Shown here: in pieces, positions 4,401-48,856 of the stretch
Layout of the letters: every line of letters starts with the position of its first letter
Numbering within the stretch: the stretch's first letter is position 1
The notes under the pieces: model-generated
Seen by the model: only the letters and a program-made list of their open reading frames with translations
What the model was told of the DNA's origin: nothing
Databases searched by the model: none
Assembly (NCBI GenBank): GCA_030704615.1
Contig: CM060734.1
Location: 62,372,001-62,436,000, forward strand
Length of the DNA stretch: 64,000 nt
Direction: 5' to 3'
DNA from: Takakia lepidozioides
Taxonomy: Eukaryota; Plantae; Bryophyta
Made by a program: the position numbers and the translations under genes

Positions 4401-4913
4401 CGCTCTCAAAGGGCAATCGGCCTGTATACACAATGAGCGTTTGCTACCCTTTGTTGGATCTGAAACTCTGTCATTCTGAAAAAAACACCTGCAAACACGT
4501 CATCTGCTTCCAAACACCCCCCCCGACTCTCCATTGCAAACATCTCTGCAGACAAATCTCCTCACCCTCTCTTTGCCAAACAAGAAGCTTGCAGGCAGGA
4601 TTGCGTCCATGGATTCATCACTCTCGCTCACTGCATGGACGCAAAGTGCTTCATCCATTGACGTCAAGAAGCTCATGGATGTTAAGCGATGTGCTAAGCG
4701 AGCTTAGGAGTGGCAGTTAGGGAGCGAGGGGAGGTTATTAGTGAGAGAGCAGCGAAGGAGGTGCGCGAGGGAGGATGGCGATTGGTGAGGAGGCGGGGAT
4801 TAGTGACAAAGCGAGGTTAGGGCATGAGCGGGGGCGGGGCGATGGGGAAGATGATGTGCAGCATGAAGGAGCCATGAAGGCATGGCGGATGCAAGCTGCT
4901 GACTAGGGCATCC

Positions 4914-17710: not shown

Positions 17711-19037
17711 CTAGAAGTTCAAGTTTTCATAGGCAAAGCGTTCATTATATAGTTGCCAGTGTCCATACCGGGGTGCATTGCTACCACTCAAGACTGGCTT
17801 ACAAAACACTCTCAAGTCAGTCAAACTTCTGGCAGCATCAGCTAAACCCTCCCTAGTCAGATTAGGACAACCCACTAAATCCAGGTGCTGTAATTGTACA
17901 CAGCACCTGACAATCAAAGCTAAACCTGCATCTGATAGGCTGGAGTTTCGCAACTCCAGATGTGTCAGGTGTGGCATGAAAGAGGCCAGTGTTCGGGCCT
18001 CTTCATCACCACTCTGCAATGCAATGACTTGAGCAAGGGCTCCTGGCAGCATGCTACGGAACCTCCAATCTGCCGCCGCATCCAGCCTGTTCCGTTTGAG
18101 CATTCTGAGTGCCTGGCAATGCTGCCCAAAGAGCTGCAAAGAGGACACTGTAATGCAGGGGCACTCACTAATGTCCAATTCTTCCAGCTGGGTACAGATG
18201 GTGGCAATGAGCCCTGCACCAGTGTCTGTCACTCCCGGGCTGGTCTTCATACCAAGCCTGCGCAGCCCTGGGCACCTGCATTCTCACACACCCCACGCCA
18301 CTGCTCCCTCAATAAAACTTGGAACATCTCCCCATTCACTGTTTTCTTTCTGTCCCGCCAATAAAACAACTGTGACTGGGAGATTTCAGACAATTTGGTC
18401 CCGGGGTGGTTACCCGCAAAATAACCTACCCACTATGCCCATACCATTCGCATTGACGTCACCATGGTGCCTAGGCACAAGATCGGTTCTAGATTCCATG
18501 CGGGGGAAGATGAAATGTTCATGGTCTCGCAGTGATAACTTTCAAAATATACTCCACCCGCAAAGCTTACATGTCATTACACTCCAAGGAATCCTCAACC
18601 CAACATCTAAGGATAGAAACGCAGGCATGATCAACCAACATACCAACAAACACAGTTGGGGGCGGCGATGAGATTGAGACTGGACGAGATGGGTACCTTG
18701 GAACAAGGTAGGAGAGTGCAGCATCACAGCAATGGCTAGTGTTCAAGCGACAGAGCCGGCCGCGGCTCCGGTCCACCACCAGCTGTAGCATGCTGGTCAT
18801 CTTTGCATCAAAGGCAGGCTGCCACCATTCGGTACTCTGCTGCCTCTGCTCAAAGCAGACAGACATATCCAATTGCTCCCAGCAGCATGGGTCACGGGAA
18901 GCAAGCAGCCAGGCCTTACACACCAGCGGTACTGTTCTATATCGATCCTCGAAAGGCAGCCTTCGAAACACTTCCACCAACCCTTCCTGCGTCATCTGCG
19001 CCCATGATTTCGTGCCCGCCATCGCTGCCATCTCCAT
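17711..19037 (-). CDS. SKIP1: F-box/LRR protein, SKIP1-like (two exons: ~19037-18697 and ~18275-17711)
   Basis: F-box (WAQMTQEGLVEVFRRLPFEDRYRTVPLVCKAW), LRRs (LEELDISECPCIT, LQHLDLVGCPNLT) and C-terminal RYGHWQLYNERF, resembling plant SKIP1; GT-AG intron. Confidence 0.85.
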
Positions 19038-19141
19038 CCCGGCACTCCACTCCACTCCTCTCCTCTACACTCTCGCTAAGATCTACGCAACACAATCGCA
19101 CGTGTGAAAGAATGGGTGTGTACAGTCGGCCCTCTCTTCTC

Positions 19142-20831: not shown

Positions 20832-21236
20832 GCCTCTCATTTTACAATAATTGGGACGTTATGGCGCACGCGCGAGCTGACCGGTGGGCGCGAGCATCCG
20901 TGCGCGGGCGCCCGGCTCCCCCCACCTGGACCCCCCCCGCGCATGGTCGCCCACCTGCTGCCGCAGCCCCGCCCGCGCTCCGCTGCGCCCCCAATCCGGC
21001 GCGGCCAGTCCGCCCGCCAGTCCGCTGCCCGTGAGTCCAGTTCCCCTCAGTCCGCCAAACCGCCAGTCTGCCGGCCAGTCTGCTGTGCACGCCAGTCCGC
21101 TGTGCCAGTCCCTGCAAGTCCACCCAACAGTCCGCTGTGCCCGTCTGCTGCCCTGCCAGTCTGCCAGTCTGCCAGTCCGCGCCGGTCGAAGGATCTGGAT
21201 TGTCCATTATGAGAAACCCATCCGCGCCATCCATGC
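20832..21236 (+). repeat. Left terminal inverted repeat of the MULE (~400 bp, GC-rich)
   Basis: Inverted match to 61523-61897, extending to atccgcgccatccatg / catggatggcgcggat. Confidence 0.93.
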
Positions 21237-21935: not shown

Positions 21936-22929
21936 TGTCAAGTTAAATAAGCACAGTGTGAAAACAGCTAGAATAAAACTAGTTATTTGTATTTAACACT
22001 TGGATTTAGGTCAAGTGTTAAATCAGGTGTCAAGTTTAGTTTGACACCTGGTCCGTCTTATCTTCACGAGAGCGGCAGTCGCGCAGCTCATCTCTCTCGA
22101 GTTGAGCCTGTGCGACCGAGCTCCTGCATGCGTTTAGATTTGAGTGTGCTTATGTAGGGGTACAGGTTGTTGTGGGGTGGAGTCCCCATAGCTTGGGGTG
22201 CCCCTGGCTCGACTACTATTTCTAAGAGTGATGGTTTGTTTTCATGTTTTGTGTCAACAATGTGTTCGTTGGATTTCTATCACTCGAGAGAGATGCTCTC
22301 TTACCTGTGAGTGCAAGGTAGGAGTTGAGGGTTAGCACTTGCAAGATTACCTGCGTATAAGTAGTGCTTAGTTTGAGAAGCATATCATTGAATGTGACCA
22401 CAAGATTCAGCGTGCCTTGAAACGCCTGGAGGATGACGATGCTAGAGCCGCCACTGTTATTGCAGTCGCTGAAGCTACCAAGTCACTAGAGGCTTTGGGG
22501 TACACAAGGAGATACTTAAAAATGCAGTAGCAAATGCTAGTTGGCACCTATGCATGATCCTTGAAGCTGGATGATCGTTTCACCAGTAAGCTTATAGAGG
22601 AGCCTGCTGTTGCAATTGTTTCTTGTATCGGGGTCGGTCTTGGACCAAAATTTAGCTTCAGCTTCTTTGTCAATCATTTGCTTTGATCATGCAAGAGCGC
22701 CATGCAGCGGGTTAAGGGGCAGGGCTATGGAGCAGAAAAGCGGCATCCTCTTCACAATGCGCAGAGGACGGAGTTCCGTGTATATGGTTGCTATGGAGCC
22801 TCGCCAACAGCAGAACTTTGCGCTTTCCGTTCTTGGGGTTGCTGCATTGTATGCGCCCTAGGATCCGGGCTTGGAATTGCCTTCTGACCAATTCAGCAGA
22901 AACGAACGACGAACGTACTCTGGCCTGAT

Positions 22930-23678
22930 TCCCTACAGTAAGCAGGAGATATATAGCTCAACGCCATCAACGAGTACACCCAAGGAGGTTGTACACCACA
23001 GCAAGTGCCGTCAGAATCTTGTCGCCGGAGGATCGAGGCCAAGCAGCATACGATGGCCACCTCACGGCCAGGCTTGGAACGGCTCTTACCATACCATATG
23101 AGGAACTTGTCGAAATAGAGGAAAAAACTTTCACAGACATGTCTGGCGAGATTTGAAAGAGTAGTTTTCTTGCTTTGACGTTGTTTCATGTCCTCTGGTT
23201 CATGGAGCTCATGACAACAAAAGTCGAGCGGCAGCGGACGTACTGGGCGCCGAGCAGAAAGGATGGTCAGGGGGACGACTGTTTCCCTTGCCCAGCAGCT
23301 AAAGTCGTAAAGATTGAAATCCACCATGTTCAGAAATCCATTTTCGAGCCGCTACCATGGATGCTTCATTGGGTTGGGATCCTGACGCTTTTAAGGCCAC
23401 ATAACACTTGACGGTGGTGCTAAGGTCACCTGCAGGAGCTTCATGATAAGTGTCCTAGGATCCGTTAGTTCTTTGCAGGCTCCGAATGCAACGCACGACT
23501 TTTTCTTTCTTTGGGTCATCTGTAACGCCCAGGAAATGCATAGCCAGAATCCACTCCGCTTCCATTGTACAGCCTGATTCGACCTGGCCCGCCCAATAGC
23601 CCTCTGGATTCTGCTTACGGAAACTCCAGTCAATTGCATCGTTGATGACCTGATCAAGCGGTGTCGAATCCATGGACT
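22930..23678 (-). pseudogene. Captured squalene-hopene cyclase fragment (N-terminal part, intronless, degenerate)
   Basis: QNPEGYWAGQVESGCTMEAEWILAMHFLG...SLQRTNGS*DTYHEAPAGDLSTTVKCYVALK...ARKWISEHGG, then FNLYDFSCWARETVVPLTIL..RPVRPLP...RQDSDGTCCGVQPPWVYSLMAL. These are characteristic SHC motifs, with a TAG at a conserved W position and an internal deletion. Confidence 0.88.
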
Positions 23679-24259
23679 CGAATGCTCCCATACACCCACT
23701 TCCCTGCAGTAAGCAGTTCACATTCACAAAAGTGCTAGAGTTTCAGCTGCAGGATGGAGACGACGGGTTTGGGAACGGCGGACCCGAGCTACGCTGGGGA
23801 TAGACGGGCAATTCAGGAGCCAGGGCTTTCTCCCCCGTAATTGGAATGGGCCGGGGACCCGCAAGCTCCAGCACAAAGTCCAGTGCTTCCCGCTGGTAAT
23901 CCTCCTCAGTGATTTATCGTTAGCCACCAAGGCCTCGAACAGACTGTGAGTGATCCCTCGCCTGTACATGGCGTCCATAAACATGTCCATAAACATGTCT
24001 TTCCTCCCCCTCTCTTGGTGCGCAAGCCTGCAAGCAATCACGGAATCCACTCTCTTTCACAACAAGACACTACTGAGTGCCACAGTTCCCTTCCTCTCTC
24101 TCTCTCTCTCACTCTCGGTATGCAGAAGACTGGAGCAAGGTGTGAATTATAGGGCACGTGGCCAGGGAACCTAGGAAACCATATAGAGCGTAGGGAACCG
24201 GGAACCAGTTACCAGATAGTTTGGGTGTAACTTTAAATTTTTAAATTTGAAAACCTTAG

Positions 24260-24291
<32 letters not shown>

Positions 24292-24426
24292 AGGGCATTT
24301 TGATCTAATTTAAATGATTTAAAGCCAAATTGGTCATATCTTTGTCAAATGGACTCTGTTTGACCCAGTTTTTGAGGGGATAGCTGCAGAAAGGGGAAAT
24401 CTACCAATCTAGACCTCAATATCGCT

Positions 24427-24972
24427 TTGGACAGTCAGAACTCTGTTGGAGCCAGCAGTTCTGCAGCTGTAAGTGAAATACCAAAGTGGGTGAAAGCTAG
24501 GCTTGGAACACAGCCAAAGACAGCCCGGGGGACCAAGGTGTTCAGCCACAAGGCTGTGGTGTACTGGAGCAGAGGAGCAGGAGCTACACAAGTTTGTGCA
24601 ATCAGACAGCGTTGCAGCCGGACACGCTCTGCACAAGGCAACCACGAGCGGGGGTTCATTAGCAAGGACAAGTTTGTTCTGTTTGAAGGAGATGCAGTCA
24701 TTCGCAATGAGGACACCCGCAACCGTCTCAAAGCTTTCGAGTTGAGAGACTATCAGACTCTACCTTTGTTTTCTTTAGTGTTCAGTGAGCGGGAGATAGC
24801 AGAGTGTTGCTTTGTCTCTACTTGGCAAAAAGAGGAGGAGGGTTGGTTAGAGCGAGCTACTGTAGCTTGGGACAAGGTTAGTGGCAGGTTTCTGGACATA
24901 GATATACCTCCTACACCTTACCATCATGCAGAGCGAGGCACTTTGAGAGAAGTCTGGCAGTTGATAGCATAG
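24427..24972 (+). pseudogene. 5'-deleted copy of the family's extra ORF
   Basis: Near-identical protein to the C-terminal 181 aa of ORF 33344-34039. Confidence 0.85.
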
Positions 24973-25727
24973 ATCAGGATTAGATCTTGCTGGGTCGGGC
25001 TTCTATTCTTCCCCTCCATCTCTGTACTATTTTCATTACCTTGTACTTGTAGTTGCCAAAGCCTCTCTTGGTGGAGGCCAGTCAGTCCGGGGTTTTGAGC
25101 TGGGATATTCCGCAGGATCAGCGTTGCTGCTGGATTTTGGTGTGGGGGTGTTGATGTTTTGATTTCTTGTGTTTGGATCCCCCCCAACACCTGCATGCTT
25201 GACTGTGCGCCATGTTGGTTTTGTGTGGGCGCTTGCTTTCATAGGGATTAGGCCGGATTTGATCACCGGTCAATCCTAGAGTATGCTGTCGGTGGTGAGG
25301 CTGGAGTGATGACCAGCAAGACCACCAGTGTTTCTTCTATGGTGAGGCTAGGTTGATGACCAGCCAACCATAGGAGTTCTTGCGGTGGATGCAGGTGCAG
25401 GTGCCCTGAGCCATTGGGATATGACCCTTAGACTGCAACAGGTGCCCACCCGTGTCACTATTAGATTAGTACTAGAGACTTATAGTGTCACGTGGAGGAG
25501 GTGCACATTGTGAGTGTCATTATGGAGTTACCCAAGGGTTTTGAGGGGAGTACGGCTACAAGCAGTACCAGTGAGAGTGGGTTCACAAGACGAGGTATTC
25601 GGTTCAGACCACCTTCACCGCCACCCTCAACTACTGTAGAGTCAGACACAGACTCGGAGGCTTCATCAACAGGTGTGCAGTTTCATTCGCCATTGTTGTG
25701 GGACGACATGGAGGAGATGTATGGAGA

Positions 25728-26719
25728 ATCGAGAAACGGAGTATCTCGTCAAATGGAAGGGCTATCATCATGTGGAGGCATCTTGGGTGTGTGCCGCAGA
25801 AATGGGAAACGCGTCCGAGGCGGTTGCAGCTTTCGAAGGGCGTCCTCATAAGCGGAAGAAGCGTTGATGGGGACATCAACCTTGGAGCGTGGGGGAAGAA
25901 ATGCATGCTTAGCCCGGTTTAGCTAGCTTAGGAATCCGATTGCAAAAACTTGTATTGTACTAAACGTGCTATAAATGAAATGGATTCCAAATGTTGTGCG
26001 TCCTATTTTGTTTGGAATGGTGATGCATGGTATGGTTGGCTAGTGTGTAGAATGCATGCTAGCTTATAAAAGTGGGAGAGGTAAATTGGGTTAATCGTGT
26101 GTTTGCGTAGTGCCGAAATCGGGTGACCCCCATCCAAGGGGCAAGGAAACTTGCGCCTTCTTTGGGAGTTCACGTGCTAGTGCGCACCTGGCGCGTGCGC
26201 GTACTATAACTGCGCTACCGAGGGGGTTGCCTTGTAGTGCGGGCTAATGAGGAAGATACGTGCTTCCGTTCACGTACTATAATCGTGTAGCCTCGAGACG
26301 AAGTCGTAGTGCGGCTTCGGCGTGTTCCCGTACCTCAGGCCAACATTCCAAGGCGGACCCAATTGTAGTGATTGGGGCGCACGGTTGGTTCAAGGTTATC
26401 TTCCTAGTCAAAGAGGGTTCCAGGTGAACCCTTGCTCAAGGTGATGCCAAAAGCGGCATCATGAGCAATCGCAAGCAATGTTGTTGCAGTAAGGCGATTC
26501 GATCCTCGGGGAGGATCGTTCCTTGGCCTTGAAGTAGGCCAAGAAGAGTGCACTGGGAGGAGCTGGAGAGGCTCCACCCGTGGCCGGGACTTGGAGGAAG
26601 TCGGCCGAACTAGCTAGTGGAGAGTAGAATCAAGTGTGGGGTTTGGTTCTTTGCCATGGGACGCCATGGTACGGAAACAAACTCCTTGATGTGGGGCGCC
26701 ACAACTTGGATGTTCGTTT
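25728..26719 (+). mobile_element. 3' end of an unrelated chromoviral Ty3/Gypsy element: chromodomain, PPT and first part of the 3' LTR
   Basis: ETEYLVKWKGYHHVEASWVCAAEMGNASEAVAAF chromodomain ending at 25867; purine tract gggggaagaaa followed by TG at ~25901; non-coding LTR-like sequence interrupted at 26720. Confidence 0.75.
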
Positions 26720-27502
26720 TGTCGTGCGCATACATATCGCTACACAACTACATCGTTGTCCAAACCACACCACACATATATGCACAATAAAGTAGTCTGC
26801 CACAATGATAGAAAACCAACGAACACACTGTTTACACAAAACATGAAAACCAAACCATCACTCTTAGAAATAGTAGTCGAGCCAGGGGCACCCCAAGCTA
26901 TGGGGACTCCACCCCACAACAACCTACACTCCCATCATGAGTACACTCAGATCTAAACGCATGCAGGAGCTCGGTCGCGCAGGCTCAACTCGAGAAAGAT
27001 GAGCCGCGCGACTGCCGCTCTCGTGAAGATAAGACGGACCAGGTGTCAAACTAAACTTGACATCTGATTTAACACTTGACCTAAATCCAAGTGTTAAATA
27101 CAAATAACTAGTTTTATTCTAGCTGTTTTCACACTGTGCTTATTTAACTTGACAGCTGTCGTGCGCATACATATCGCTACACAACTACATCGCTGTCCAA
27201 ACCACACCACACATATATGCACAATAAAGTAGTCTAGCACAATCGCCCCCCTAGCTGGTGGATAGGTCCCTCTACCTCCAGATAGCTACAAGATGAAATA
27301 GCCACAACCGTACTAAGTCCTCCATCACTGTCCCTATTGTACTCAAACTCTATAGATCAAGAGGCCGGGTACAAGAGTAGCCCCATCGTTAGTCGCCGTC
27401 TTGCAATCTGTGAACTTGAGCCAGGATCTCGTGTGTTCAAGGTCTCCTAGTAGCCGGGCCTTGCGTTTCTTGTTAGCCTTCCATGGTTGTATCCACTCCC
27501 AC

Positions 27503-30500
27503 TATCCAATGCAATGTGGACATAACCAATCCCCATCTGGAACCATCTCAAGAGGTGGAGTCTAGCATCCCATATGCCAACCTCTAGAGCATCGATCACA
27601 CACCAACATGGTGGCTGCCCCTTTAGCAGACCCACACAACATGCACCTCAAACCTGCAGATACCACTACCAGGTTTGGGTCAATCCTGCCATCGACATTC
27701 GGAAGGTGACATGGCGCACAATTACGCACATGGTCCTTCCAAGTTATGCCATCCCGACCCTCCAAGACCAAGACGCCTGAGGGCAAGACCTCTCGAACCC
27801 TCAAAATAACACGTCCTGCAGTCACATCCAGGGTTGTAGGAGCAGTCTGCTGCAGATAGACATAGTCACCAGGGTTGAATCTCCGAACCCCAGGACGATA
27901 GCCCCCACCACGTATGGTAGCATACCTCAACGTATCACGGTGTTGTGCAATGGCAAGGTTCTCGAAAGCCATGGGCATGACTCTCTTGAACAACTCTGCA
28001 CGCTGCTCACATGCACGTGCCCACACGTCCGGATCGTCAAGGTTAAGAACTGTAGCAGTTTCTCTGCGAATGGATGTAGGCAAATCCGGCTCTCGGCCAA
28101 AGAGAAGAAAGTATGGTGAGAAGGAGGCAAGTGATGCTTGCTTGCTGAACCTATAGCCCATGGCTAACCAGGGTAACTGAAGGTCCCAATCTCCTAGGTG
28201 TCCCTTCTGCAAGCCATACTTGCGCAAACCCCTCTTTACTGTCTGAACAACTCTCTCTGCCAAGCCATCGGCCTCAGGATGATCCCGAGAAGTGGTGCGG
28301 TGGTCTATCAAGGCCTTGTCACACAAAGCCTGAAACTCCCCCAAGAACTCTCTCCCTTGGTCCGTGAGTACCTCAGCTGGAGCACCAAATCGGCTAAGCA
28401 CACAATCCAAGAATGCATACGCAGCTCCCTCACTAGCCTTATCAGGCAATGGAACCAATTCAATCCACTTGGAGAAGTGCTCCACCATCATCAACACGTA
28501 CTTGTTGTGGCGCATGGTCAGTGGCAACGGCCCTGCGAAGTCAAGACTCCACCTGTAGCCCAATCCCATGATCGGAAGAGGGTGCAATTGTGGAGAAGGG
28601 GCGTTGAATGAAGCACGCCCCTGTCACACACCATGCACCTAGCCACAAATTGTTGCACCTCTGTGTGCATACCACGCCACCAATACTGCCCCTGCAGTAG
28701 ACTATGAGTGCGTCGCACCCCAAAATGCCCAACTCCTCATGGGCATGGCGCACTAACCGTGCCGCTGTGTTGGGTGAGGCACAATCCTCACTCGACCATC
28801 CTCCCACACTCGGAGCAGGTGTGTCCCCTCGCACTTGAACCTCTTGGCTCGTTGTAGGATCGATCCCTCTCCTTGGCAGTCACAGTGGCTGCCGTGTCTC
28901 CAGTGCGGAGGTAGTCCAACACAACTGAATCCTCATGTATATCTTTGGCGCCACCTTGCTCATTGCTGGCCTCAGGGACCTCAGACACTTGATCTACAGT
29001 CATCCCTGTTGCAGGTCCAACCTGGCCTTCCGCTGCCAAGATACACAGAAATGCAGATGCATGCCATCCGGGCACCATCTCCTCGTCCGTCTCACCATGC
29101 CACCGAGCTCCAGTGTCATCCTGTTGGCTCGTGCATGGATTGCGACTCAACCATCTGCATTGCGATTGACCAAACCCGGTCGATGCACCACCTGAAAGTC
29201 ATACTCTTGAAGGATGAGTGCCACCGTGCAAGCTTCCCGTAAGCTTGTCTGACTCCATCAACCACTTGAGTGGTTGGTGATCCGTGACAAGGGTGAAGAG
29301 ATTGCCGTATAGATAGCACCTGAAGTGTGCCACGGCCCACACTGCAGCTAAGCATTCTCCCTCATATGAGCTATACTTAGACTCTGCAGCATTGTTCGAG
29401 CGGCTAGCATAAGCCACTACGAACTCTCTTCCCTCATCATCCACCTGTGTGAGCACCGCTCCAAGCCCTAGCATGCTCCAATCTGTATGCAGCTGAAAAG
29501 GACGCCCCCTGATAGGTCGTCTCAAGATGGGCGCCGAGGTCAACCTCGCCTTGAGCTCTTGGAAAGCTTGTTCCTGCTCATCTTCCCACTGCCACTCCTG
29601 GTCCACCTTGGTCAGCTTGGTTAGAGCCTTTGCAATGGCACTAAATCCCTTAACAAACCGTCTGTAATAGTTTGCTAACCCCATGAAAGCTCGAACTCGG
29701 CTCACATCCGTGGGGCGTGGAACCTGTGCAATGGACTCTACCTTAGTCTGTTGTACCCCCAATCCTCCAGGATATATCATGTGACCCAGATATTCAATCT
29801 GGTTGTGGAAAAACTTGCACTTGCCCGGATGTAACTTCAATCTGTGCGTCCTCAAGCGCTCAAATACCCCCTGAAGGTGTCTCTCATGCTCCTCCACCGT
29901 AGCACTAAAGATGATGATGTCATCTATGTAGCACCGAGCAAACTCCACCCCTGCTAGAATCCTGTCCATGACTCTTTGAAACTCAGCGGGAGCGTTTTTA
30001 AGCCCAAATGGTAAGAACCGCCACTGTATAGGCAATCCTTCCCGTGCTCATTGATCCCCCAGAATGCCGTCTTTGCTTATCCGCCTCCTTGATCGGCAAC
30101 TGGTGATATCCGGATTGTAAATCCAACGTGCTAAAGACCTTGGAATGCCCAATGGCATCAAGATCTCCTCTGGTGTCGGCATGGCATACCTATGGACTTG
30201 GTCTGACGATTTACAGGCCGGTAATCACCGCACATACGTCTCTCCGTCCAATTGCCATAGACATCCTTCTTAGCTGGCATCACTGTGGCTGAAGCATACT
30301 CTCCACCAGAGAGCTCCACCAATTCTGCCTCCCAGAGATCTTGAGTCCTCATCTGAATCAAAGACCTCTCCATGTCACTATATCTATAGGTCTCCGAAAG
30401 ATTGGCGTGTCAGTGGCCAACTCAATACGGATCTCTTGACCCTTCAGTGCTCCCAAGTCCTTCAAACTGAAGGCAAAGCAATTCCTGTAAGCCCTCAGGA

Positions 30501-30542
30501 ACCGCCGTATACGTCGTCTCTCTCCTCCGGTGACAATGGGTC
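27503..30542 (-). pseudogene. Copy 1 pol 3' half: RT, RNase H, integrase, PHD finger (frameshifted)
   Basis: LPFGLKNAPAEFQR, YIDDIIIFS, LHTDWS...SYEGECLAAVWAV, WSLDFAGP...LTDQGREF...DGLAERVVQTVK, CMLCG...CDRCSRGWHMGC. Confidence 0.95.
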
Positions 30543-31109
30543 TGTCAAGTTAAATAAGCACAGTGTGAAAACAGCTAGAATAAAACTAGTTATTTGTATT
30601 TAACACTTGGATTTAGGTCAAGTGTTAAATCAGGTGTCAAGTTTAGTTTGACACCTGTCTGTCTTATTCTTCACGAGATGCGGTCACAGTCGCGCGCTCA
30701 TCTCTCTCGAGTGAGCCTGCTCGACCGAGCTCCTGCATTGTTGAGGACTGAGTGTGCTTATGATGGGAGTGTAGGTTGTTGTGGGGTGGAGTCCCCATAG
30801 CTTGGGGTTCCCCTGGCTCGACTTATATTTTAAAGAGTGATCTTGAGGGATTGCATATTTCTTGTGTTGAGAGTGTGTGTCCTTTACAAGTTTGTTTATC
30901 ACTCGAGAGAGATGATCGTTATCTAGTGTGCTGGTGCTAAGCTAGATACAATGTTTGTTTTAGCATTATTATAATACATATCTTGGGCGGGAGTCCATCT
31001 GGCCTTGCTTTTTTCGCTGGTCTGTGCGCAAGAGCATAGGTGCTGTACAGTCCATTAGAGGAGAAAGGAGAAGTTTCAGAGATGGAGAAGGCAGCGGACA
31101 GGCATTGAG

Positions 31110-31634
31110 GGAATGTGTGCTGGTGCTGGACTTCGGATCGCAGTATACGCATCTTATCACCGTCGTGTCCGACAGTTCTCTATTTGCCCCTTTTGCTTAC
31201 CTGCTGGTACCGCCCTTGGAAGCCATTCAGGGGGCTCAATCCCTCCGTTAATAATTCTCTCAGGTGGACCCCGTTCTGTCCATGAAGAGGGCTCTCCCAA
31301 CTGTGGCCTGATGGCTTCTTCGAGTACACAAGGAATCATGGGATCGTAGTGCTTGGCGTTTTAACGGCTGCACCTTATTGTCAAAGTGCTGGGAGGAGAG
31401 GTCAAGCAGGCGGAGAGCCAAGAGTATGGCGCATGTAAATAGCTGCTGTGAAGGATAGTAAACTATATGGGTGATGCAGAGAGCTTCTCAAACCCGGTCG
31501 TGTGGATGAGTCATGGTGATGAGGCAGTTAACGTTCACCAGGCTTTCACGTCGTAGCCACCAGTTTTGCAGGGCAACATTGCTGCCATTGAGACAGCGCT
31601 GCTTGGAATTTATGCTCTTCAATATCATCCCGAG
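31110..31634 (+). pseudogene. Captured GMP synthase glutamine-amidotransferase fragment
   Basis: VLVLDFGSQYTHLI, IILSGGPRSVH, VWMSHGDEAV and GIYALQYHPE across several frameshifts. Confidence 0.9.
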
Positions 31635-31986
31635 GGTTTTGTGGCAAGGCCAGAGGCTGGGACGGACGGGTCTCTCAATCTCATGATCTGGCAGTGCACT
31701 TTACCTGGCAAAGCTGGGACTGATTTGGGAAGGGGGATTCTACCCAACTGCAATCCATTTCAGCGAGGACTATCCCAGTAAGCCACCCAAGTGCAAGTTT
31801 CCCGCAGGCTTCTTTCACCCGAACCTGTATCCGTCAGGCACAGTGTGCCTCTCTAACCCTCAATGAGGACTCTGGGTGGAGACCAGCCATCACCGTGAAA
31901 CAAATTCTGGTTGGCATCCAGGAGCTGCTAGATGCCCAAATCCAGCTGACCCAGCACAGACTGAAGCGTACAACTATTCATCCAGG
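31635..31986 (+). pseudogene. Captured SUMO-conjugating enzyme (SCE1/Ubc9) fragment, intronless
   Basis: [95 protein letters not shown]. Confidence 0.92.
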
Positions 31987-32114
31987 TCGAGAAGTCACAG
32001 GTGGACCAGCTCAAGGTCTGAAACTCCCCCAAGTCTGAAACCTTCCAAGGCTGTTTACAACATGACAAGAAAGCAGCAGAGATATACCTGCTTACTGGCA
32101 AAGAGTCATTGCTA

Positions 32115-32240
32115 GGAGCTGCATTTGATCCAGAGCTACACTCTGTACTGGAGCTGGCCAGTGATGCTGAGCTGTTTGAACTATTGAACATTCTCTATGG
32201 ACAAAGCCTGCTGAGCCTGCTGTTGAAGTCAGTGGCGCTA
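32115..32240 (+). pseudogene. Captured fragment of a conserved plant protein (YaaW-like, uncharacterised)
   Basis: AAFDPELHSVLELASDAELFELLNILYGQSLLSLLLKSV resembles a conserved plant/cyanobacterial motif; from recall only. Confidence 0.55.
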
Positions 32241-33290
32241 GACGGAGGTGCTATACGGGCTGCTGGTTTGATCAATGGGTGTTGGATCTTCTTCCTTTGT
32301 CCACTCCTTACCTGTGAAGAAGTGCCCTGGTGGAAGCTTGGCAGTTGATCCAGTTACTAATGGAAGCCCTACCGCAAACAAAGAGTGTTGCTGAGAGACA
32401 AGGAAAGTACCTGGGCAAATCTTTGAACAAGCTGGCACAAGCAGGTGGTGGTCAGGCTGGGGTCCTTTTGTAGAGATCCTGTGGGCCTTTAATGAGCAAG
32501 TGATCCAACCATACTCTAAGCTCAGGCGTTGAGCAGCCTTACAGGTGAAGCTATAGGGTCCCGTGGGAACAATTTCTGCAGCTACACAGGGTGTGTTAGT
32601 GGCCTAAGAACAGCTTAGAAATGCTTCAGTGCAAGCCCTGGAAATTGTGGGCGTCAATGCCCGTTGCAGGAAAACATGAGATGCGAATTAGACCAAGTTG
32701 ATGGAACTTCAAGCTGGTCTTGGCTTTGGATTCCATGCAAAGACGGCCACATCACAGCAGGCCGCCTGTCCATAAGCCATGAAGGTGCTGCGCAGTGCAT
32801 CTACTCTTGAAATCGCCCCACTCGCTGGTTTGTAGTCTCTAGGTCTCGAGGAGGCAGGCCCACGCGCAGAGAAAAGCAAATCGTGATAACCCCACCCAAC
32901 TGAGGTCGAGTGTTGGAATTAACGAGCTCTTGGTGCCTGGAGAATCCTGGAGGGGAACGACCTCGGGAACTCGTAGATAACCTGGGAACAGGTTGTAATG
33001 ACAAAAGCGTTTTGGTTTAAAAAAAAAAAAACAAAGCCTTTTTGATCTAATTTAAATGTTTAAAGAGCCTGGTTGGTCATATCTTTGTCAAATGAGCTCC
33101 GTTTGACTCAGTTTTTTGAGGGGATAGCTGCAGAAAGGGGAAATCTACCTATCTAGTTTTCTGTTTTTGGGACTCTGCTAAAAATCTATGGAATTTTTAG
33201 AGTGTGAGTGTGCCATGAAAGATCCACAATCCTGTCTCTAGAACCTGTGCTGGTCTATATTAGAGACAAATCTGTGGATGTACTCCTTGT

Positions 33291-34039
33291 ATGGCTGGGG
33301 GAAATGAGGACGTAATTGAAGGGCAGGTCTCTTCTCTTAGCCTGTGCACCAAGGGGACAAGATTTATGTTTCCCAAGGAACTCAGACTGATTTGAGTGGA
33401 GAACAGTTGGACGAGTTGATTGCATACTGGGAGTCAGGCATTAGCAGTAGACAACAGACTGCTGTAGTTGGCATTGAGGGCCTCAATATCGCCTTGGACA
33501 GTCAGAACTCTGTTGGAGCCAGCAGTTCTGCAGCTGTAGGTGAAATACCAAAGTGGGTGAAAGCTAGGCTTGGAACACAGCCAAAGACAGCCCCGGGGAC
33601 CAAGGTGTTCAGCCACAAGGCCGTGGTGTACTGGAGCAGAGGAGCAGGAGCTACACAAGTTTGTGCAATCAGACATGGTTGCAGCCGGATACGCTCTGCA
33701 CAGGGCAACCACGAGCGGGGGTTCATCAGCAATGACATGTTTGTTGTGCGTGAAGGAGATGCAGTCATTCGCAATGAGGACACCCGCAACCGTCTCAAAG
33801 CTTTCGAGTTGAGAGACTATCAGACCCTACCTTTGTTTTCTTTAGTGTTCAGTGAGCGGGAGATAGGGGAGTATTGCTTTGTCTCTACCTGGCAGAAAGA
33901 GGAGGAGGGTTGGTTAGAGCGAGCTACTGTAGCTTGGGACAAGGTTAGTGGCAGGTTTCTGGACATAGATATACCTCCTACACCTTACCATCATGCAGAG
34001 CGAGGCACTTTGAGAGAAGTCTGGCAGTTGATAGCATAG
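33291..34039 (+). CDS. Extra ORF (~250 aa, unknown function) upstream of gag in the retrotransposon
   Basis: Present in all three copies (24427-24972 +, ~47350-48090 -). ATG at 33291 (MAGGNEDVIEG) with one frameshift at ~33350 in this copy. Confidence 0.7.
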
Positions 34040-34551
34040 ATCAGGATTAGATCTTGCTTGGTCGGGCTTCTATTCTTCCCCTCCATCTCTGTACTATTTT
34101 CATTACCTTGTACTTGTAGTTGCCAAAGCCTCTCTTGGTGGAGGCCAGTCAGTCCGGGGTTTTGGGCTGGGATATTCTGCAGGATCAGCATTGCAGCTGG
34201 ATTTTGGGTGGGGGTGTTGATGTTTTGATTTCTTGTGTTTGGATCCCCCCAACACCTGCATGCTTGACTGTGCGCCATGTTGGTTTTGTGTGGGCGCTTG
34301 CTTTCATAGGGATTAGGCCGGATTTGATCACCGGTCAATCCTAGAGTATGCTGTCGGTGGTGAGGCTGGAGTGATGACCAGCAAGACCACCAGTGTTTCT
34401 TCTATGGGTGAGGCTGGGTTGATGACCAGCCAACCATAGGAGTTCTTGCGGTGGATGCAGGTGCAGGTGCCCTGAGCCATTGGGATATGACCCTTAACTG
34501 CAACAGGTGCCCACCCGTGTCACTATTAGATTAGTACTAGAGCCTTAGTGT

Positions 34552-36100
34552 CACGTGGAGGAGGTGCACATTGTGAGTGTCATTACGGAGTTACCCAAGG
34601 GTTTTGAGGGGAGTACGGCTACAGGCAGTAACAGTGAGAGTGGGTTCACAAGACGAGGTATTCGGTTCAGACCACCTTCACCGCCACCCTCAATACTGTA
34701 GAGTCAGACACAGACTCGGAGGCTTCATCAACAGGTGTGCAATTTTCATTCGCCATTGTTGTGGGACGACATGGAGGAGATGTATGGAGCTACCAAGGGG
34801 CCTCGTAGGTACTCTGGAGCTGTGGGCACAATCGAGTTGGATGACTTTATCCAGGAGTTCGACAGCTGGTGTGATTTGCAGCAGATGCGCAATCCACAGC
34901 TATTCACCCCATTCATGGCGTGGAAGGGACTGTTCCAGCATTTGGAAGGCCCGCCTATGGACGATTACCACGAGTTCAGGCGAGGACATGAAGCAGAGAT
35001 TGAGGAGTGGAGGATGTATTGGTCACCTGACTACGTCTCCATTACTCGAGGCACGACGACCAGTAGCTGCATCAGTACCAATAGCTCCCACTGCCAGCAC
35101 TAGTAGTGGAGCAAGTAGTGCTGGTACTTCTGCAGGTGGTACCAGTTCAAAAGTGCTACTACTCTCCTGCCACGACTACAACACATGTGCCTAGATTCAA
35201 CCCGGTGGTGGAGTTCTTCCAGGAGTTGCGAGGAACTACCAAGGTGTACGGACAGAGAAGCTGCGAAGTTTGCAAGACTTCCAGCGCAAACCCAGTGAGA
35301 GCCTGCGAGAGGCGTACACTCGTATGAGGCGCTTGATAAGTGTGAAAGGGGTTACTGAAGCTCAGGCAATCCAGTTTTGGTATGGAATTCTGGACAAGGA
35401 GCTCAAGAAGGGTGCGAGATGCAACCCTGTTACAAGCAGCCCAACCCACATTAGCAGATGTGTTTCTGCTGGCTGAGCGGATTGAGCTCAACATGGTGGA
35501 GGAGCGAGTTGTTACAATTGGATTTGGCAAGGACATGCCTGTACGGGGCACAGCTGTCAGCCCACAAGGCACAAGGGACTGCCCAACAGCGTGGTCAGGG
35601 GGCAAGGTATTGCCCAGCCCAAGTTCCATGGAGCTTACACGGGACCTCAGGTGCAGAGGCCGTCTCTTTGCAGGCCAACAGCAACCAGGGGTGATATGTT
35701 GGACATGTGGAGGACCCCATGTCAAGAGAGATTGCCCAGAGAGTGGCAGAAGGCCGGCACAAGCACAGCCTGCACAGTTGCAGTGTGGGCATTGTGGCAA
35801 GTATGGGCATGGAGATGCCCAGTGTTATGACTTGCATCCTGAGTTGCGCCCAGGCCAGTTCCGGGAACAATGGTGGCCGGGGGCGAGGTGGACCAGCCCA
35901 AAGAGGACGAGGTGGTCGGGCACGAGGTGCAGGCCAAGGGCAACTCCACATGGCAAGGACGCGGAGGTCAGGGTGTTGACCAAGGCATGGCCAATCGGCT
36001 TCAGCAGCTAGAGCAGAGGATCGCTGCCATGGCTATAGCTCAGGCGGTACCGGCTCCCAGGCGGGATGGCCCACCTCCTGCTCCTGAGGGAGGAGATATG
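34552..36100 (+). pseudogene. Copy 2 gag (frameshifted) with two zinc knuckles
   Basis: ELDDFIQEFDSWCD, FQRKPSESLREAYTRMRRL, CWTCGGPHVKRDC, CGHCGKYGHGDAQC. Confidence 0.85.
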
Positions 36101-36679
36101 GGAGGCATGGGATTCATGTGCGGAGCAGCACTACCATTAGAGCAGGTGGAGTCTGCTGCAGCCGTGACTCGAGGAGCAACACGAGTTCCTGAGCCACGAG
36201 GTGCAGAGGTGGATTGGATCCACAACGTGGGGAGGCAAGCCGTCAGGCAAGGCTGCCTCAGTCATTCACCTTGGCGGAGACAGTGTCAACGCCATCCATG
36301 GCACCTAGTTCTCGCCCGACTGTTACCGAGGCGGAGGTTACTATGCCATTGGGGAGAGCTACACGTGCAGCACTGACACCTGCTACCAAGGCTAGTGCAG
36401 CCGGTGTGTTATTGGGGGCAGCCACCTCTGTGTGTCAAGCCCCACTGTTCTCGGCGACCATGATTGCGACGCCGGGGTGAGACCAGCTGCAGTGTTCAGA
36501 CTAGCAGCAACACTCTGTGAGAGTGGGAGGTCACTTCATCTTCTGCGGAGTTAGTGGAAGGTGTAGTGGCAGAGGGATCCTCGGATTTGAGGGTCAAGAC
36601 TGCCACGGCAGCGCCCTGGCAAGCTGCAGCTGCCAGTTGACGGAGCTGCCAGCTAGGCCAGCCTTTGAGCGCGCCATGG

Positions 36680-37140
36680 TGACACCTGGAGTTGTCTTGT
36701 TAGACAACCAGGGAGGCATTTTCACTTTGAGTGGACCGGCAGGCAAGAAGTACCGGCCACTGCGGGTCTTGTTGGACTCAGGAGCTCAGCCACTGATGTT
36801 GGGCAGAGCTGCTATTGCAGGTTTGGGCCTCATGGAGGCGGATATGGAGCCTTGTCCTTTCCAGATACAGACATCTCTGGGAGGATCAGAGCAGGCTCGG
36901 GCATGACACGGCATCAGTTGGCTATTAGACTGCAGCCGGATCATCCTGTAGATGGCTCAGTGATGCGAGCCAAGGCCATTGTGACAGACGCGGTCTCTTA
37001 CGATGTCCTCGTTGGTGGGGCAGTGTTATACCCCATGGGCTTCACCCTGGATTTCTGGGAGGAGTCAGCATCCTACAGGCCTGGATGGCAGTCAGGGGAT
37101 GGTCGCCGTGCACAGCTCCCTGTGACATTCATTGGGGGTA
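36680..37140 (+). pseudogene. Copy 2 retroviral-type aspartic protease
   Basis: RVLLDSGAQPLMLG catalytic motif and YDVLVGGAVL C-terminal motif. Confidence 0.85.
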
Positions 37141-37469
37141 TTGCAGCTGCCAGCGGGGCAAGATGCCAACACTAGCCGCCTTCACAGCTGCAGTTAGTTG
37201 GCCTGGAGAGTTGCTGGAAGGCAATGCCCATGCAGAGGATGTGCCACCTCCAGCAGAGCAGGATGACATGCATGGTACGGCGGAGTTGCCTGCCATGGTT
37301 GCTCACACTCCGTTGTGGGGTACGAGCAAGGATTTGCAGCAGCTGCTGATGGACGGGTGCAACAAGCTTGGGTAGAAGCTTTTGTACCGTCAGAGAGGAG
37401 GAGAGTGTGATTGCACCAGGGCCACCTCAGTTGTCGCCATTGGACACCACACTCTTGGTGGCAGCGACC

Positions 37470-38450
37470 GGATGAAGGCATATGCCTTCTGGACTTATTT
37501 GGCGGGATCAGCACTGGATTGGCTGCAGTGCTGCAGGCAGGTGTACGAGTTCGACGTTACCTGTATGTGGAGAGGGATGAGACTGCACGACGCGTCTCAC
37601 TGCGCCATGTTGCTCAGATGGTGCAGCAGCCCTGAGTTGTTGCCGGTGTCTGCAGTTCGTGGATATCAGCAGGCCTTGCCAGCAGACATTGCTTGCTGGG
37701 GGCGCAGGATTTGGAGCGGGTTGGCTCCATTGATCTGGTAGTGGCAGGTTGGCCCTGCCAAGGGCATTCATCAGCCGGGCATGGCAATGGATTGCGAGAC
37801 GAGAGGACGGGTTGTTTGGGAGATGGTGCGGATTTTGCGCCACTTGCAGCTTCATCAGGCTGTATCTCCGGCATACATCTTGGAGAATGTGCCTGATGGG
37901 TGATTCTCGGGCCAGGGTGATGGCCAGTGTGCATCAAGCGGTCGTGGCTTGGGTCAGCAGTATTGCTGGATGCAGCTGCAGTGGGGTCACGGGCTCATCG
38001 TCCACGACTATGGTGGACTAACTTGATGCCACCCGCACTGCTCAAGCGTGCATTTGATGGGGTGCAGCGGCCAGCACACCTCACCGTGGATGGCATTTTG
38101 GACACAGGAAGGCAGTCTCAACGTGTGAGACACGATGACCGTTCGCCTTTGGCAGTGGTCAACAGGGTGGGTCAACCACGAGCAGCATTACCTACACTGC
38201 TCAGCTTCCCAGGATCCCATGCTTTTCGGGATGGTGGACCTGGCCTCCTGTGGGATGCTCAGTTGCAGCAGTTAGTGGAGCCTAATGCCGACGAGCGAGA
38301 GCGGGCTATGGGGTTTTCCACTGGGACCACGGCGGTGCCTTCTCTTTCTGAGGCATCACGTCGTCAGGTGTTGGGGCAAGCAATGGATCTCAATTGCTTG
38401 ACCTGGATTGTCAGCTTGGCTATGGCTGAGCAACGTAGAGTGCGGAGTGC
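37470..38450 (+). pseudogene. C5 cytosine DNA methyltransferase domain (DNMT3-like motifs) inside pol of copy 2
   Basis: Motif I LLDLFGGISTG, motif II RYLYVERD, motif IV DLVVAGWPCQGHS, motif VI YILENV (~37875-37892), motif VIII GSRAHRPRLWWTN, motif IX ERERAMGF and motif X QVLGQAMDL, in canonical order across frameshifts. Confidence 0.93.
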
Positions 38451-38779
38451 ACTTCCCTTGACGGTCTCTCTGCCTACCGAGACGGTACAGGCAGCGAGTG
38501 GGGGCGAGCGGTGAGGACCACGAGGTGTAGACATCCATGGCACATGTGGGGGAGGTGCTCGAGGTTCAGAGGGAGTTGGCAGCGAAGGCAGCTGTGATGG
38601 ATGAGGTTGGGGATTCTTCTCGGGATGAGGAGGTTCTCAATGATGAGATGATGGGGCAGGATGAGGCCTTGTCATTGACTGAGCAGGAAGGGGGTACTGC
38701 TCAAGAGGTTGCAGCATAGCAACCACGGGACGCGTCCTCTACCTCTAAGCCCACTGGACTTAAGGTTGCAGTTACGGAG

Positions 38780-41700
38780 GACAATTGGGAGCCTGACATT
38801 GGACCCATTGTCACGGAGAGAGAGACGACGTATACGGCGGTTCCTGAGGGCTTACAGGAATTGCTTTGCCTTCAGTTTGAAGGACTTGGGAGCACTGAAG
38901 GGTCAAGAGATCCGTATTGAGTTGGCCACTGACACGCCAATCTTTCGGAGACCCTATAGATACAGTGACATGGAGAGGTCTTTGATTCAGATGAGGACTC
39001 AAGATCTCTGGGAGGCAGGTTTGGTGGAGCTCTCTGGTGGAGAGTATGCTTCAGCCACAGTGATGCCAGCTAAGAAGGATGTCTATGGCAATTGGACGGA
39101 GAGACGTATGTGCGGTGATTACCGGCCTGTAAATCGTCAGACCAAGTCCGATAGGTATGCCATGCCAACACCAGAGGAGATCTTTGATGCCATTGGGCAT
39201 TCCAAGGTCTTTAGCACGTTGGATTTACGATCCGGATATCACCAGTTGCCGATCAAGGAGGCGGATAAGCAAAAGACGGCATTCTGGGGGATCAATGAGC
39301 ACGGGAAGGATTGCCTATACCAGTGGCGGTTCTTACCATTTGGGCTTAAAAACGCTCCCGCTGAGTTTCAAAGAGTCATGGACAGGATTCTAGCAGGGGT
39401 GGAGTTTGCTCGGTGCTACATAGATGACATCATCATCTTTAGTGCTACGGTGGAGGAGCATGAGAGACACCTTCAGGGGTATTTGAGCGCTTGAGGACGC
39501 ACGGATTGAAGTTACATCCGGGCAAGTGCAAGTTTTTCCACAACCAGATTGAGTATCTGGGTCACATGATATATCCTGGAGGATTGGGGGTACAGCAGAC
39601 TAAGGTAGAGTCCATTGCACAGGTTCCACGCCCCACGGATGTGAGCCGAGTTCGAGCTTTCATGGGGTTAGCAAACTATTACAGACGGTTTGTTAAGGGA
39701 TTTAGTGCCATTGCAAAGGCTCTAACCAAGCTGACCAAGGTGGACCAGGGTGGCAGTGGGAAGATGAGCAAGAACAAGCTTTTCAAGAGCTCAAGGCGAG
39801 GTTGACCTCGGCGCCCATCTTGAGACGACCTATCAGGGGGCGTCCTTTTCAGCTGCATACAGATTGGAGCATGCTGGGGCTTGGAGCGGTGCTCACACAG
39901 GTGGATGATGAGGGAAGAGAGTTCGTAGTGGCTTATGCTAGCCGCTCGAACAATGCTGCAGAGTCTAAGTATAGCTCATATGAGGGAGAATGCTTAGCTG
40001 CAGTGTGGGCCGTGGCACACTTCAGGTGCTATTTATACGGCAATCTCTTCACCCTTGTCACGGATCACCAACCACTCAAGTGGTTGATGGAGTCAGACAA
40101 GCTTACGGGGAAGCTTGCACGGTGGGCACTCATCCTTCAAGAGTATGACTTTCAGGTGGTGCATCGACCGGGTTTGGTCAATCGAAATGCAGATGGGTTG
40201 AGTCGCAATCCATGCACGAGCCAGCAGGATGACACTGGAGCTCGGTGGCATGGTGAGACGGACGAGGAGATGGTGCCCGGATGGCATGCATCTGCATTTC
40301 TGTGTATCTTGGCAGCGGAAGGCCAGGTTGGACCTACAACAGGGATGACTGTAGATCAAGTGTCTGAGGACCCTGAGGCCAGCAATGAGCAGGGTGGCGC
40401 CAAAGATATACATGAGGATTCAGTTGTGTTGGACTACCTCCGCAGTGGAGACACGGCAGCCACTATGACTGCCAAGGAGAGGGATCGGATCCTACAACGA
40501 GCCAAGAGGTTCAGTGGGAGGGGACACACCTGCTCCGAGTGTGGGAGGATGGTCGAGTGAGGATTGTGCCTCACCCAACACAGCGGGCACGGTTAGTGCG
40601 GCATGCCCATGAGGAGTTGGGGCATTTTGGGGTGCGACGCACTCATAGTCTACTGCAGGGGCAGTATTGGTGGCGTGGTATGCACACAGAGGCAACAATT
40701 TGTGGCTAGGTGCATGGTGTGTGACAGGGTGCGTGCTTCATTCAACGCCCCTACTCCACAATTGCACCCTCTTCCGATCATGGGATTGGGCTACAGGTGG
40801 AGTCTTGACTTCGCAGGGCCGTTGCCACTGACCATGCGCCACAACAAGTACGTGTTGGTGATGGTGGAGCACTTCTCCAAGTGGATTGAATTGGTTCCAT
40901 TGCCTGATAAGGCTAGTGAGGGAGCTGCGTATGCATTCCTGGATTGTGTGCTTAGCCGATTCGGTGCTCCAGCTGAGGTACTCACGGACCAAGGGAGAGA
41001 GTTCTTGGGGGAGTTTCAGGCTTTGTGTGACAAGGCCTTGATAGACCACCGCACCACTTCTCGGGATCATCCTGAAGCCGATGGCTTGGCAGAGAGAGTT
41101 GTTCAGACAGTAAAGAGGGTTTGCGCAAGTATGGCTTGCAGAAGGGACACCTAGGAGATTGGGACCTTCAGTTACCCTGGTTAGCCATGGGCTACAGGTT
41201 CAGCAAGCAAGCATCACTTGCCTCCTTCTCACCATACTTTCTTCTCTTTGGCCGAGAGCCGGATTTGCCTACATCCATTCGCAGAGAAGCTGCTACAGTT
41301 CTTAACCTTGACGATCCGGACGTGTGGGCACGTGCATGTGAGCAGCGTGCAGAGTTGTTCAAGAGAGTCATGCCATGGCTTTCGAGAACCTTGCCATTGC
41401 ACAACACCGTGATACGTTGAGGTATGCTACCATACGTGGTGGGGGCTATCGTCCTGGGTTCGGAGATTCAACCCTGGTGACTATGTCTATCTGCAGCAGA
41501 CTGCTCCTACGACCCTGGATGTGACTGCAGGACGTGTTATTTTGAGGGTTCGAGAGGTCTTGCCCTCAGGCGTCTTGGTCTTGGAGGGTCGGGATGGCAT
41601 CACTTGGAAGGACCATGTGCGTAATTGTGCGCCATGTCACCTTCCGAATGTTGATGGCAGGATTGACCCAAACCTGGCAGTGGTATCTGCAGGTTTGAGG

Positions 41701-41844
41701 TGCATGTTGTGTGGGTCTGCTAAAGGGGCAGCCACCATGCTGGTGTGTGATCGATGCTCTAGAGGTTGGCATATGGGATGCTTGACTCCACCTCTTGAGA
41801 TGGTTCCGGATGGGGATTGGTTATGTCCACATTGCATTGGATAG
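38780..41844 (+). pseudogene. Copy 2 pol: RT, RNase H, H2C2/DDE integrase and C-terminal PHD finger
   Basis: RMCGDYRPVN, FSTLDLRSGYHQ, YIDD, TDWS, TDHQPLKWL, HEELGHFG..CMVCD, DFAG/TDQG/AER, CMLC..CDRC..H..C..WLCPHC. The RT-RH-IN order is Ty3/Gypsy type. Confidence 0.96.
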
Positions 41845-48350: not shown

Positions 48351-48568
48351 TTTTTCTTTTTTTTTTCTTTTTCTTTTCAAATTTAAAAATTCAAATGAGT
48401 GAGAAGCTCTTTGGAAACTTCCCCTATCCTTACATGCTTTTCCACCTGGGTCATGCTTTCTCCCTGCAGGGGTGGAATTTGCATATGCTTATCAGCGTTG
48501 GAGAGGGCGGCAAGAGCGGACGTACTGATTGCGGGCGTACAGAGCTGACGGATGGGCTTTAGGGGCTA

Positions 48569-48856
<288 letters not shown>

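Follow-up and report, generated by a model that had tools for sequence, protein, structure and literature searches.

A Dnmt3-bearing Ty3/Gypsy element in the moss Takakia lepidozioides carries a fast-changing patchwork of probable host-gene fragments in its leader

Why do close copies of one retroelement carry different pieces of host genes at the same place in their leaders, and how did these pieces get there? The question is raised by a 64,000-nucleotide stretch of DNA from the moss T. lepidozioides (GenBank assembly GCA_030704615.1, contig CM060734.1, positions 62,372,001 to 62,436,000; the window). Self-comparison of the window revealed three copies of one Ty3/Gypsy element: c1, which begins at 21936 on the plus strand; c2, at 30543-42587 on the plus strand; and c3, at 50713-26721 on the minus strand (Table 1). 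Copies 1 and 3 of a first-pass annotation of this DNA are our c3 and c1, respectively. Two identical terminal LTRs are absent. The ends consist instead of a repeat A (~350 bases; A1) on the 5′ side and of a polypurine tract followed by B (86 bases), A, and again B (B1, A2, and B2) on the 3′ side. c2 is nested in c3 and flanked by the 4-bp target duplication GGTC (30539-30542 and 42588-42591), and c3 is bounded by the target duplication AAAC. Both are young copies, with 3 of 310 (c2) and 0 of 347 (c3) substitutions between A1 and A2. c1 is incomplete: its homology stops at 25726 and is followed by the chromodomain-coding end of another element. The annotation had called the element outside the cargo highly similar between copies, which holds for the bodies (1.3 to 2.4% substitutions over 1.3 kb) and fails for the truncated c1 and for A1 of c2, which resembles its counterparts in c1 and c3 at only 86%.

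The copies form a nested cluster, with c2 in opposite orientation inside a copy of its own family and the truncated c1 adjoining. The sequence to which c1 is joined, at 25726-26720, comprises the chromodomain end and a probable LTR start of another element, of chromovirus type. A GC-rich repeat, present as an inverted pair (20832-21235 and 61523-61897, 85% identical), distantly flanks the cluster. Elsewhere the window holds a tandem array at 1-1799 (400-base period, 95 to 97% identical), an intronless PPR-DYW gene at 2034-4499 (822-codon frame), and F-box/LRR gene pieces at 17714-19064. A 375-base piece of the family's own integrase region, 89 to 90% identical, lies at 55527-55901 near a SWIM-domain frame (52493-53152); it was perhaps captured by a MULE-like element. 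An Rfam scan of 20000-52000 gave no matches. Note that many small indels in the window are absent from a DNA run (12 gaps in 542 bases), so many of its frameshifts are probably assembly errors.

Table 1. Features of the three element copies, in window coordinates.
Feature	Positions	Strand	Basis or remark
Repeat A1 of c1, LTR-like, TGTCA start	21936-22281	+	likely self-primer at ~22089-22102
Primer-binding site of c1, 14 nt complementary to inside of A1	22282-22296	+	predicted self-priming; 0/200 control 18-mers pair as strongly
LUC7 cargo piece common to c1 and c3 (homology 22372-22527); spliced across conserved intron after 22482; copies part after CAG at 22527	22297-22527	+	
Unnamed cargo seen only in c1	22528-22958	.	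no Pfam match; one frame without atlas match
Squalene-hopene cyclase (SHC) N-terminal fragment, antisense to element, internal deletion of ~27-33 codons near 23310	22959-23658	-	
Probable N-terminal extension and 5′ UTR (GA microsatellite) of putative SHC donor	23659-24130	-	sequence, translation
Pre-tract segment, weakly related among copies	24131-24260	+	
A-tract opening conserved leader of c1	24261-24290	+	sequence
Conserved leader and gag start of c1; 324-base part of c2/c3 missing; cut off at 25726	24291-25726	+	self-comparison
3′ half of c3: RT, RNase H, integrase, PHD, PPT-B1-A2-B2; duplication AAAC	26721-30542	-	
A1 of c2; 5′ duplication GGTC at 30539-30542	30543-30900	+	
Primer site and cargo of c2: GMP synthase (to 31634), SCE1 (31635-31985), conserved land-plant gene (31986-32241), unnamed pieces	30901-33018	+	
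A-tract and conserved leader of c2, holding 232-codon open frame (33341-34036)	33019-34701	+	
c2 gag, protease-like region, Dnmt3-type methyltransferase (about 37470-38511), RT, RNase H, H2C2-rve integrase, PHD finger	34702-41841	+	
c2 polypurine tract, B1 (42100-42185), GC spacer, A2 (42188-42500), B2 (42501-42587); then GGTC	42088-42587	+	
5′ half of c3: A1 (50713-50364), cargo (50349-48378), A-tract, leader, gag to DNMT	42588-50713	-	
c3 cargo: LUC7 piece and RPL8 piece (48730-48635)	50349-48378	-	

In its workings the element resembles LTR elements, although its ends are permuted. Pfam domains in c2 follow the order RVT_1, RT_RNaseH, Integrase_H2C2, and rve; the gag match is weak (E = 0.023), and the protease is known only from a motif and from matches in relatives. 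The methyltransferase matches Pfam DNA_methylase (E = 1.4e-4), and a profile built from 20 sequences (the window piece and 19 homologs) has DNMT3A as its best match (E = 5e-19). The proteins closest to this region come from Calypogeia, Marchantia, and Sphagnum (64 to 74% for the top rows). A DDE integrase, the order gag-PR-RT-RNase H-integrase, 4-bp duplications, and the ends TGTCA…CGACA are Ty3/Gypsy traits, and both complete window copies combine Gypsy domains with A-coding-B-A-B repeats. Split direct repeats would also fit a tyrosine-recombinase element of the DIRS/Ngaro kind. Such elements are not known to make DDE-type target duplications, and this assignment was ruled out by the rve integrase, the 4-bp duplications, and the lack of any recombinase match.

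The backbone is of an already known kind, likened by layout and domains, because its layout matches that described for KnitGypsy-Dnmt3 of Klebsormidium nitens (PMC5890265), which has the same Gypsy domains, a Dnmt3-type methyltransferase in pol, and DIRS-like A-coding-B-A-B repeats. K. nitens is an alga, whereas the window element resides in a land plant and has relatives in Marchantia, Calypogeia, and Sphagnum. The available text on KnitGypsy-Dnmt3 (PMC5890265) makes no mention of cargo, self-priming, target duplication, a PHD finger, or a replication model. Within the literature searched, Dnmt3-bearing Gypsy elements were found described only from Klebsormidium. No Klebsormidium-named sequence occurs among the proteins matching the methyltransferase region (P0001-P0064), and that set includes Dnmt3-bearing Gypsy polyproteins from Marchantia, Calypogeia, and Sphagnum that carry hypothetical-gene annotations. 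Features of the window element recur in the available text of the REXdb survey (PMC6317226): extra unrelated 5′ internal sequence, self-priming predicted for Tcn1 and TAR, and 4- or 5-bp duplications. That survey, however, required two ordinary LTRs, and the words methyltransferase and PHD are absent from its main text as available; its extra sequences are open frames, whereas the window cargo consists of broken host exons.

The first-pass annotation had reported ~2 kb of largely unrelated sequence between A1 and the A-tract in each copy. Between the end of A1 and the first conserved motif past the A-tract we measured 2015 (c1), 2138 (c2), and 2019 (c3) bases, and most of this sequence is indeed unrelated; the claim does not extend to the first 246 cargo bases of c1 and c3, which are alike at 95.5% (the LUC7 fragment), with nothing detectable in common after 22527. 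Elsewhere the cargos have no similarity at E < 0.4, save for 18 bases ahead of the tract. The last 100 to 150 bases before the A-tract are weakly related between c1 and c2 (2 of 1000 shuffles score as high) and between c1 and c3 (0 of 1000), and are unrelated between c2 and c3 (494 of 1000). Since c1 and c3 are ~4% apart in A and in the LUC7 piece yet unrelated after 22527, slot content turns over fast: cargo is replaced while the bodies differ by 1.3 to 2.4%. The cargo lies between the primer site and the first reading frame, no coding part is replaced, and the gag-pol layout is complete in c2 and c3. Reads were mapped on the c2 cargo only; their depth there, which is not a measure of copy number, is far under that of the body (for example, 2.5 to 5.9 versus 140.7 in run X5) and hints that the c2 cargo is a minority form. 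Searches of Pfam, the protein atlas, and the relatives gave no match to the 232-codon frame in the conserved leader, which may represent an accessory gene or cargo that became fixed long ago.

Metagenome contigs, when scanned, yielded at least 304 confirmed relatives among at least 600 pattern matches, and the best 80 were kept. In a nearer family within these 80, the leader is both collinear and short in 18 of the 19 loci with a gag start; from the start of A to gag there are 1.46 to 1.62 kb in the 11 loci of this family that show the span, versus 4.16 kb in c2. A second, more distant family has leaders that vary in length by degenerate repeats behind an A-rich tract (L061, L062, L069, L072, L074, L076, and L077). 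We considered this variable leader as another cargo slot and rejected it: its content is degenerate repeats, and none of the three leaders scanned in six frames has a Pfam match above the cutoff. The leader thus tolerates change, and host cargo is peculiar to the window's family, since the metagenome relatives have the odd ends but show no host cargo. An exact 33-base pattern from A had no matches in metagenome contigs, and an integrase query against viral contigs gave 17 pattern matches and no confirmed relatives. The annotation had further proposed a dedicated, roughly length-constant capture region; this generalization is not supported, as it was drawn from three copies, two of them related, and close relatives have no such cargo.

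Pfam matches above the cutoff were found in 5 of the 18 cargo frames scanned, and they bear out the donors first named from the sequence: SHC in c1, on the minus strand (E = 3.9e-33 and 2.8e-24); GMP synthase (GATase, E = 1.2e-06) and SCE1 (UQ_con, E = 4.8e-14) in c2; and RPL8 in c3 (Ribosomal_L2_C, E = 1.2e-08). The conserved land-plant gene that follows SCE1 in c2 is nearest to moss and liverwort proteins. For the SHC piece, the best matches are bacterial or unnamed, at 56 to 61% identity (17 matches among 119 candidates). A host donor nevertheless appears likelier than a bacterial one, because bryophyte SHC genes are placed among non-cyanobacterial bacteria in the available text of PMC6786969. 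The cargo frames are broken, and the donors have no common function. Over the final ~75 bases ahead of the c2 A-tract (32946-33030), the window is matched by a deep contig of run X7 that has other, T-rich sequence upstream.

Sequence comparisons support the view that the cargo consists of host-gene fragments that passed through RNA. The earlier proposal of refilling from mRNAs, for which intron loss was to be the mark, is upheld to this extent: passage through RNA is evident for LUC7 in c1 and c3, and the c2 pieces match probable RNA contigs unbroken. Among 32 matches to LUC7, 16 are short proteins that depart from the alignment with Val immediately behind EVT[K/Q/L] (read-through into GT), 15 enter the next exon, and one does neither; the LUC7 piece of c1 and c3 continues into the next exon, the conserved intron being lost. 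Contigs of runs X7 and X11 (two studies, probable RNA) match GMP synthase unbroken over 31117-31635, with 17 to 18 substitutions, and match SCE1 over 31635-31986, beyond which they run on as host coding sequence. The same intron-free form of the c2 cargo is present in DNA contigs of run X1, which may be the window's own sample. In DNA contigs, 1 of 559 bases differs over 31073-31618, and one contig bridges the end of GMP synthase into SCE1. A fork in SCE1 at 31874, seen in three runs, hints at an SCE1 intron at this position.

The joints between pieces bear on how they were put together. With reads, the gene-gene joints of c2 were placed at 31634/31635, 31985/31986, and 32241/32242, with overlaps of 1, 3, and 1 bases, respectively; for two others, near 32664-32678 and 32845, no exact position could be assigned. 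The point at which c1 and c3 part, at 22527, is likewise preceded by AG; AG stands before every one of the four mappable joints, the one at 32241/32242 requiring two mismatches for this placement. AG makes up 7.6 to 9.2% of dinucleotides and reaches 22 to 27% of positions when a one-base slide is allowed; with that slide, the chance of four joints in four at AG is ~0.004. The LUC7 piece stops about three codons short of the next exon end in homologs, that is, at AG and not at a known exon edge. The ends of the SCE1 and GMP synthase pieces may be true exon edges, conserved plant SCE1 introns being expected at both ends of the SCE1 piece. In one DNA-run variant, 71 bases are skipped beside a 6-base repeat, a pattern typical of microhomology events.

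We favor, with a probability of roughly 0.55, the reading that the 2-kb cargo is a passive patchwork of host genes in the non-coding leader, spliced within the element transcript and fixed by reverse transcription. First, unspliced RNA or DNA of the host would enter the leader, in one orientation or the other. The joints at AG and the intron loss in LUC7 suggest that the element transcript is then spliced, which would remove donor introns, join exons of different genes, and erase the first junction scars. Template switching between co-packaged family RNAs would put 5′ modules (the end of A plus the cargo) onto near-identical bodies, and such swapped modules would explain why young copies differ in cargo. 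The basis is three copies. Against this reading, splicing explains neither the antisense direction of the SHC piece nor the deletion within it; the LUC7 end short of an exon edge, the 71-base skip, and the two c2 joints without a position also count against splicing alone.

The alternative that survives best, possible and clearly less probable, is LTR-mediated retroposition, in which reverse transcriptase switches repeatedly onto co-packaged mature mRNAs at microhomologies, near the minus-strand end. This process is known and widespread (PMC5131818), and it accounts for intron loss, partial genes, several donors, and the end of LUC7 inside an exon. The named donors are mostly housekeeping genes, and the X7 contig meets the bases before the c2 A-tract as an mRNA 3′ end might. 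The first-pass annotation had likewise invoked template switching, with junction microhomology as its expected sign, and this gains no support here: the three gene-gene joints, each after AG, overlap by 1, 3, and 1 bases, as against a median microsimilarity of 6 bp at the template switches of LTR-mediated retrocopies in Drosophila, as given in the available text of Tan et al. 2016 (PMC5131818). The joints therefore fit splicing better than microhomology-driven switching, although short overlaps at AG/G could themselves be microhomology. Neither does minus-strand switching on mRNA directly give an antisense SHC piece. We also rejected the idea that the A-tract is simply a poly(A) tail that was captured: bases before the tract are related between copies, and an A-rich leader tract is present in cargo-free relatives as well. 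As in LTR retrocopies and maize Bs1 (PMC5131818, available text), the pieces are partial, intron-free, derived from several host genes, and recopied in later rounds. In those systems the retrocopy replaces part of the element frames, whereas the window cargo sits upstream of a complete gag-pol layout, is joined after AG with overlaps of 1 to 3 bases, and differs between young copies.

We regard it as unlikely that gene-carrying DNA transposons (Helitron or Pack-MULE) inserted into the leader and were spliced down by later retrotransposition. Such secondary insertions would yield both orientations and, after splicing, exon-precise joints, and the SWIM-domain element nearby, with its piece of integrase, points to DNA-level capture in this genome. 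No terminal inverted repeats or duplications bound the cargo in any of the three copies, however, and no hairpin-plus-CTRR Helitron end was found at it on either strand. Together with the lack of one fixed sequence common to the three copies, this leaves neither of the outcomes that the annotation had named as fatal to a variable capture slot. Moreover, independent insertions would alter the length of the slot, and the lengths differ by only 6%. Work on gene capture by plant transposons (PMC13477047, available text) likewise describes fragments of several genes and a possible rise in donor methylation; it offers genome-wide statistics, in contrast to a family-specific fixed slot.

More improbable still is a dedicated, selected device that samples host transcripts for mimicry or, via Dnmt3, for methylation or siRNA conflict with the donors. 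The fixed position, similar length, and fast turnover of the cargo would suit such a device, as would the Dnmt3-type enzyme that the element encodes, and in a conifer the donor genes of captured fragments are more methylated (PMC13477047, available text). Relatives with the same Dnmt3 and the same ends carry no cargo, however, which weakens a functional link between methyltransferase and cargo, and broken frames from donors of such varied function are not what a device of this kind would be expected to hold. An assembly chimera, in which the cargo is mis-joined sequence, is hardly credible: small indel errors abound in the window and reads were checked for the c2 cargo only, but DNA contigs match that cargo intron-free and across the joint from GMP synthase to SCE1, c1 and c3 independently share the spliced LUC7, and the target duplications are intact.

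The ends of the element raise a second issue, that of replication. In all three window copies, the 14 to 15 bases after A1 are complementary to a site ~150 bases into A, with a compensating base change in c3. Four of seven relatives have a self-complementary primer site of other sequence at the same place, and the remaining three, which are old, decayed copies, showed none. Self-priming has been predicted for Tcn1 (PMC6317226, available text), and from its pairing pattern the RNA of the window element likely primes itself. A purine tract stands directly before B1, in relatives too, and the B/A junction is a palindrome (GACAGCTGTC) in the window element and close to one in relatives. Among the best 80 of at least 304 relatives, B-A-B is found in 14 of 55 loci of at least 4 kb, 7 of them with A1, and six of the 55 run past the PHD finger with no B-B repeat; exact 4-bp duplications flank both complete window copies and, within the same best 80, 4 of 6 distinct complete relatives. 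The B-A-B relatives are L007, L013, L026, L034, L037, L042, L050, L054, L059, L062, L067, L069, L070, and L076, and the window's own instances lie at 42088-42587 and 26721-27260.

With a primer site after A1 and a purine tract before B1, ordinary LTR-type reverse transcription would give B-A…B-A. An A…B-A-B element within a target duplication is what this product would become if circularized and opened at B/A. We infer that the RNA primes itself, that the linear cDNA B-A…B-A forms a two-LTR circle, and that integrase opens this circle at the palindromic B/A junction to leave A…B-A-B; integration from a two-LTR circle cut there is, in our judgment, probable. In a weak test of whether B2 was copied from the same element's B1, that B1 came first for 5 of the 12 elements compared and second for another 3. 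Foamy virus integrase similarly cuts palindromic circle junctions to give processed ends (PMC1180852, available text). In foamy virus, the cut falls at the LTR-LTR junction and the usual order is restored, whereas the predicted cut in the window element falls inside the repeat unit and permutes the element.

The fullest combined reading is that the family routinely refills a fixed-length slot with host exons by splicing (possibly trans-splicing to host pre-mRNAs), stays autonomous, and belongs to a widespread Dnmt3 lineage that integrates obligatorily from a two-LTR circle, which a DDE integrase opens at an internal palindrome; we put it forward as a tentative and rather doubtful whole. In the literature searched, with most subscription papers lying outside it, we found no variable cargo slot, no bryophyte occurrence, and no circle model for elements of the KnitGypsy-Dnmt3 type. 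The cargo slot is an unusually fast-changing form of known gene capture, and the circle-integration model may be the more novel of the two.

When LTR elements capture genes, this is commonly regarded as a rare accident that cripples the element. Here, cargo at one harmless site seems to be replaced before the body diverges by a few percent, which would allow capture to be counted, and exon-edge joints to be tested against microhomology, within a single genome. Dnmt3-bearing Gypsy elements are extended from one alga to liverworts and mosses, and software that looks for two ordinary LTRs would probably overlook those with A…B-A-B ends. Retrovirologists have long argued over whether two-LTR circles can be integration precursors; a natural test would be at hand if such circles give rise to A…B-A-B elements with a DDE integrase. 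Should the refilling-slot, circle-integrating reading be true, the family would serve as a vector for exon shuffling and as a natural example of circle-first integration.
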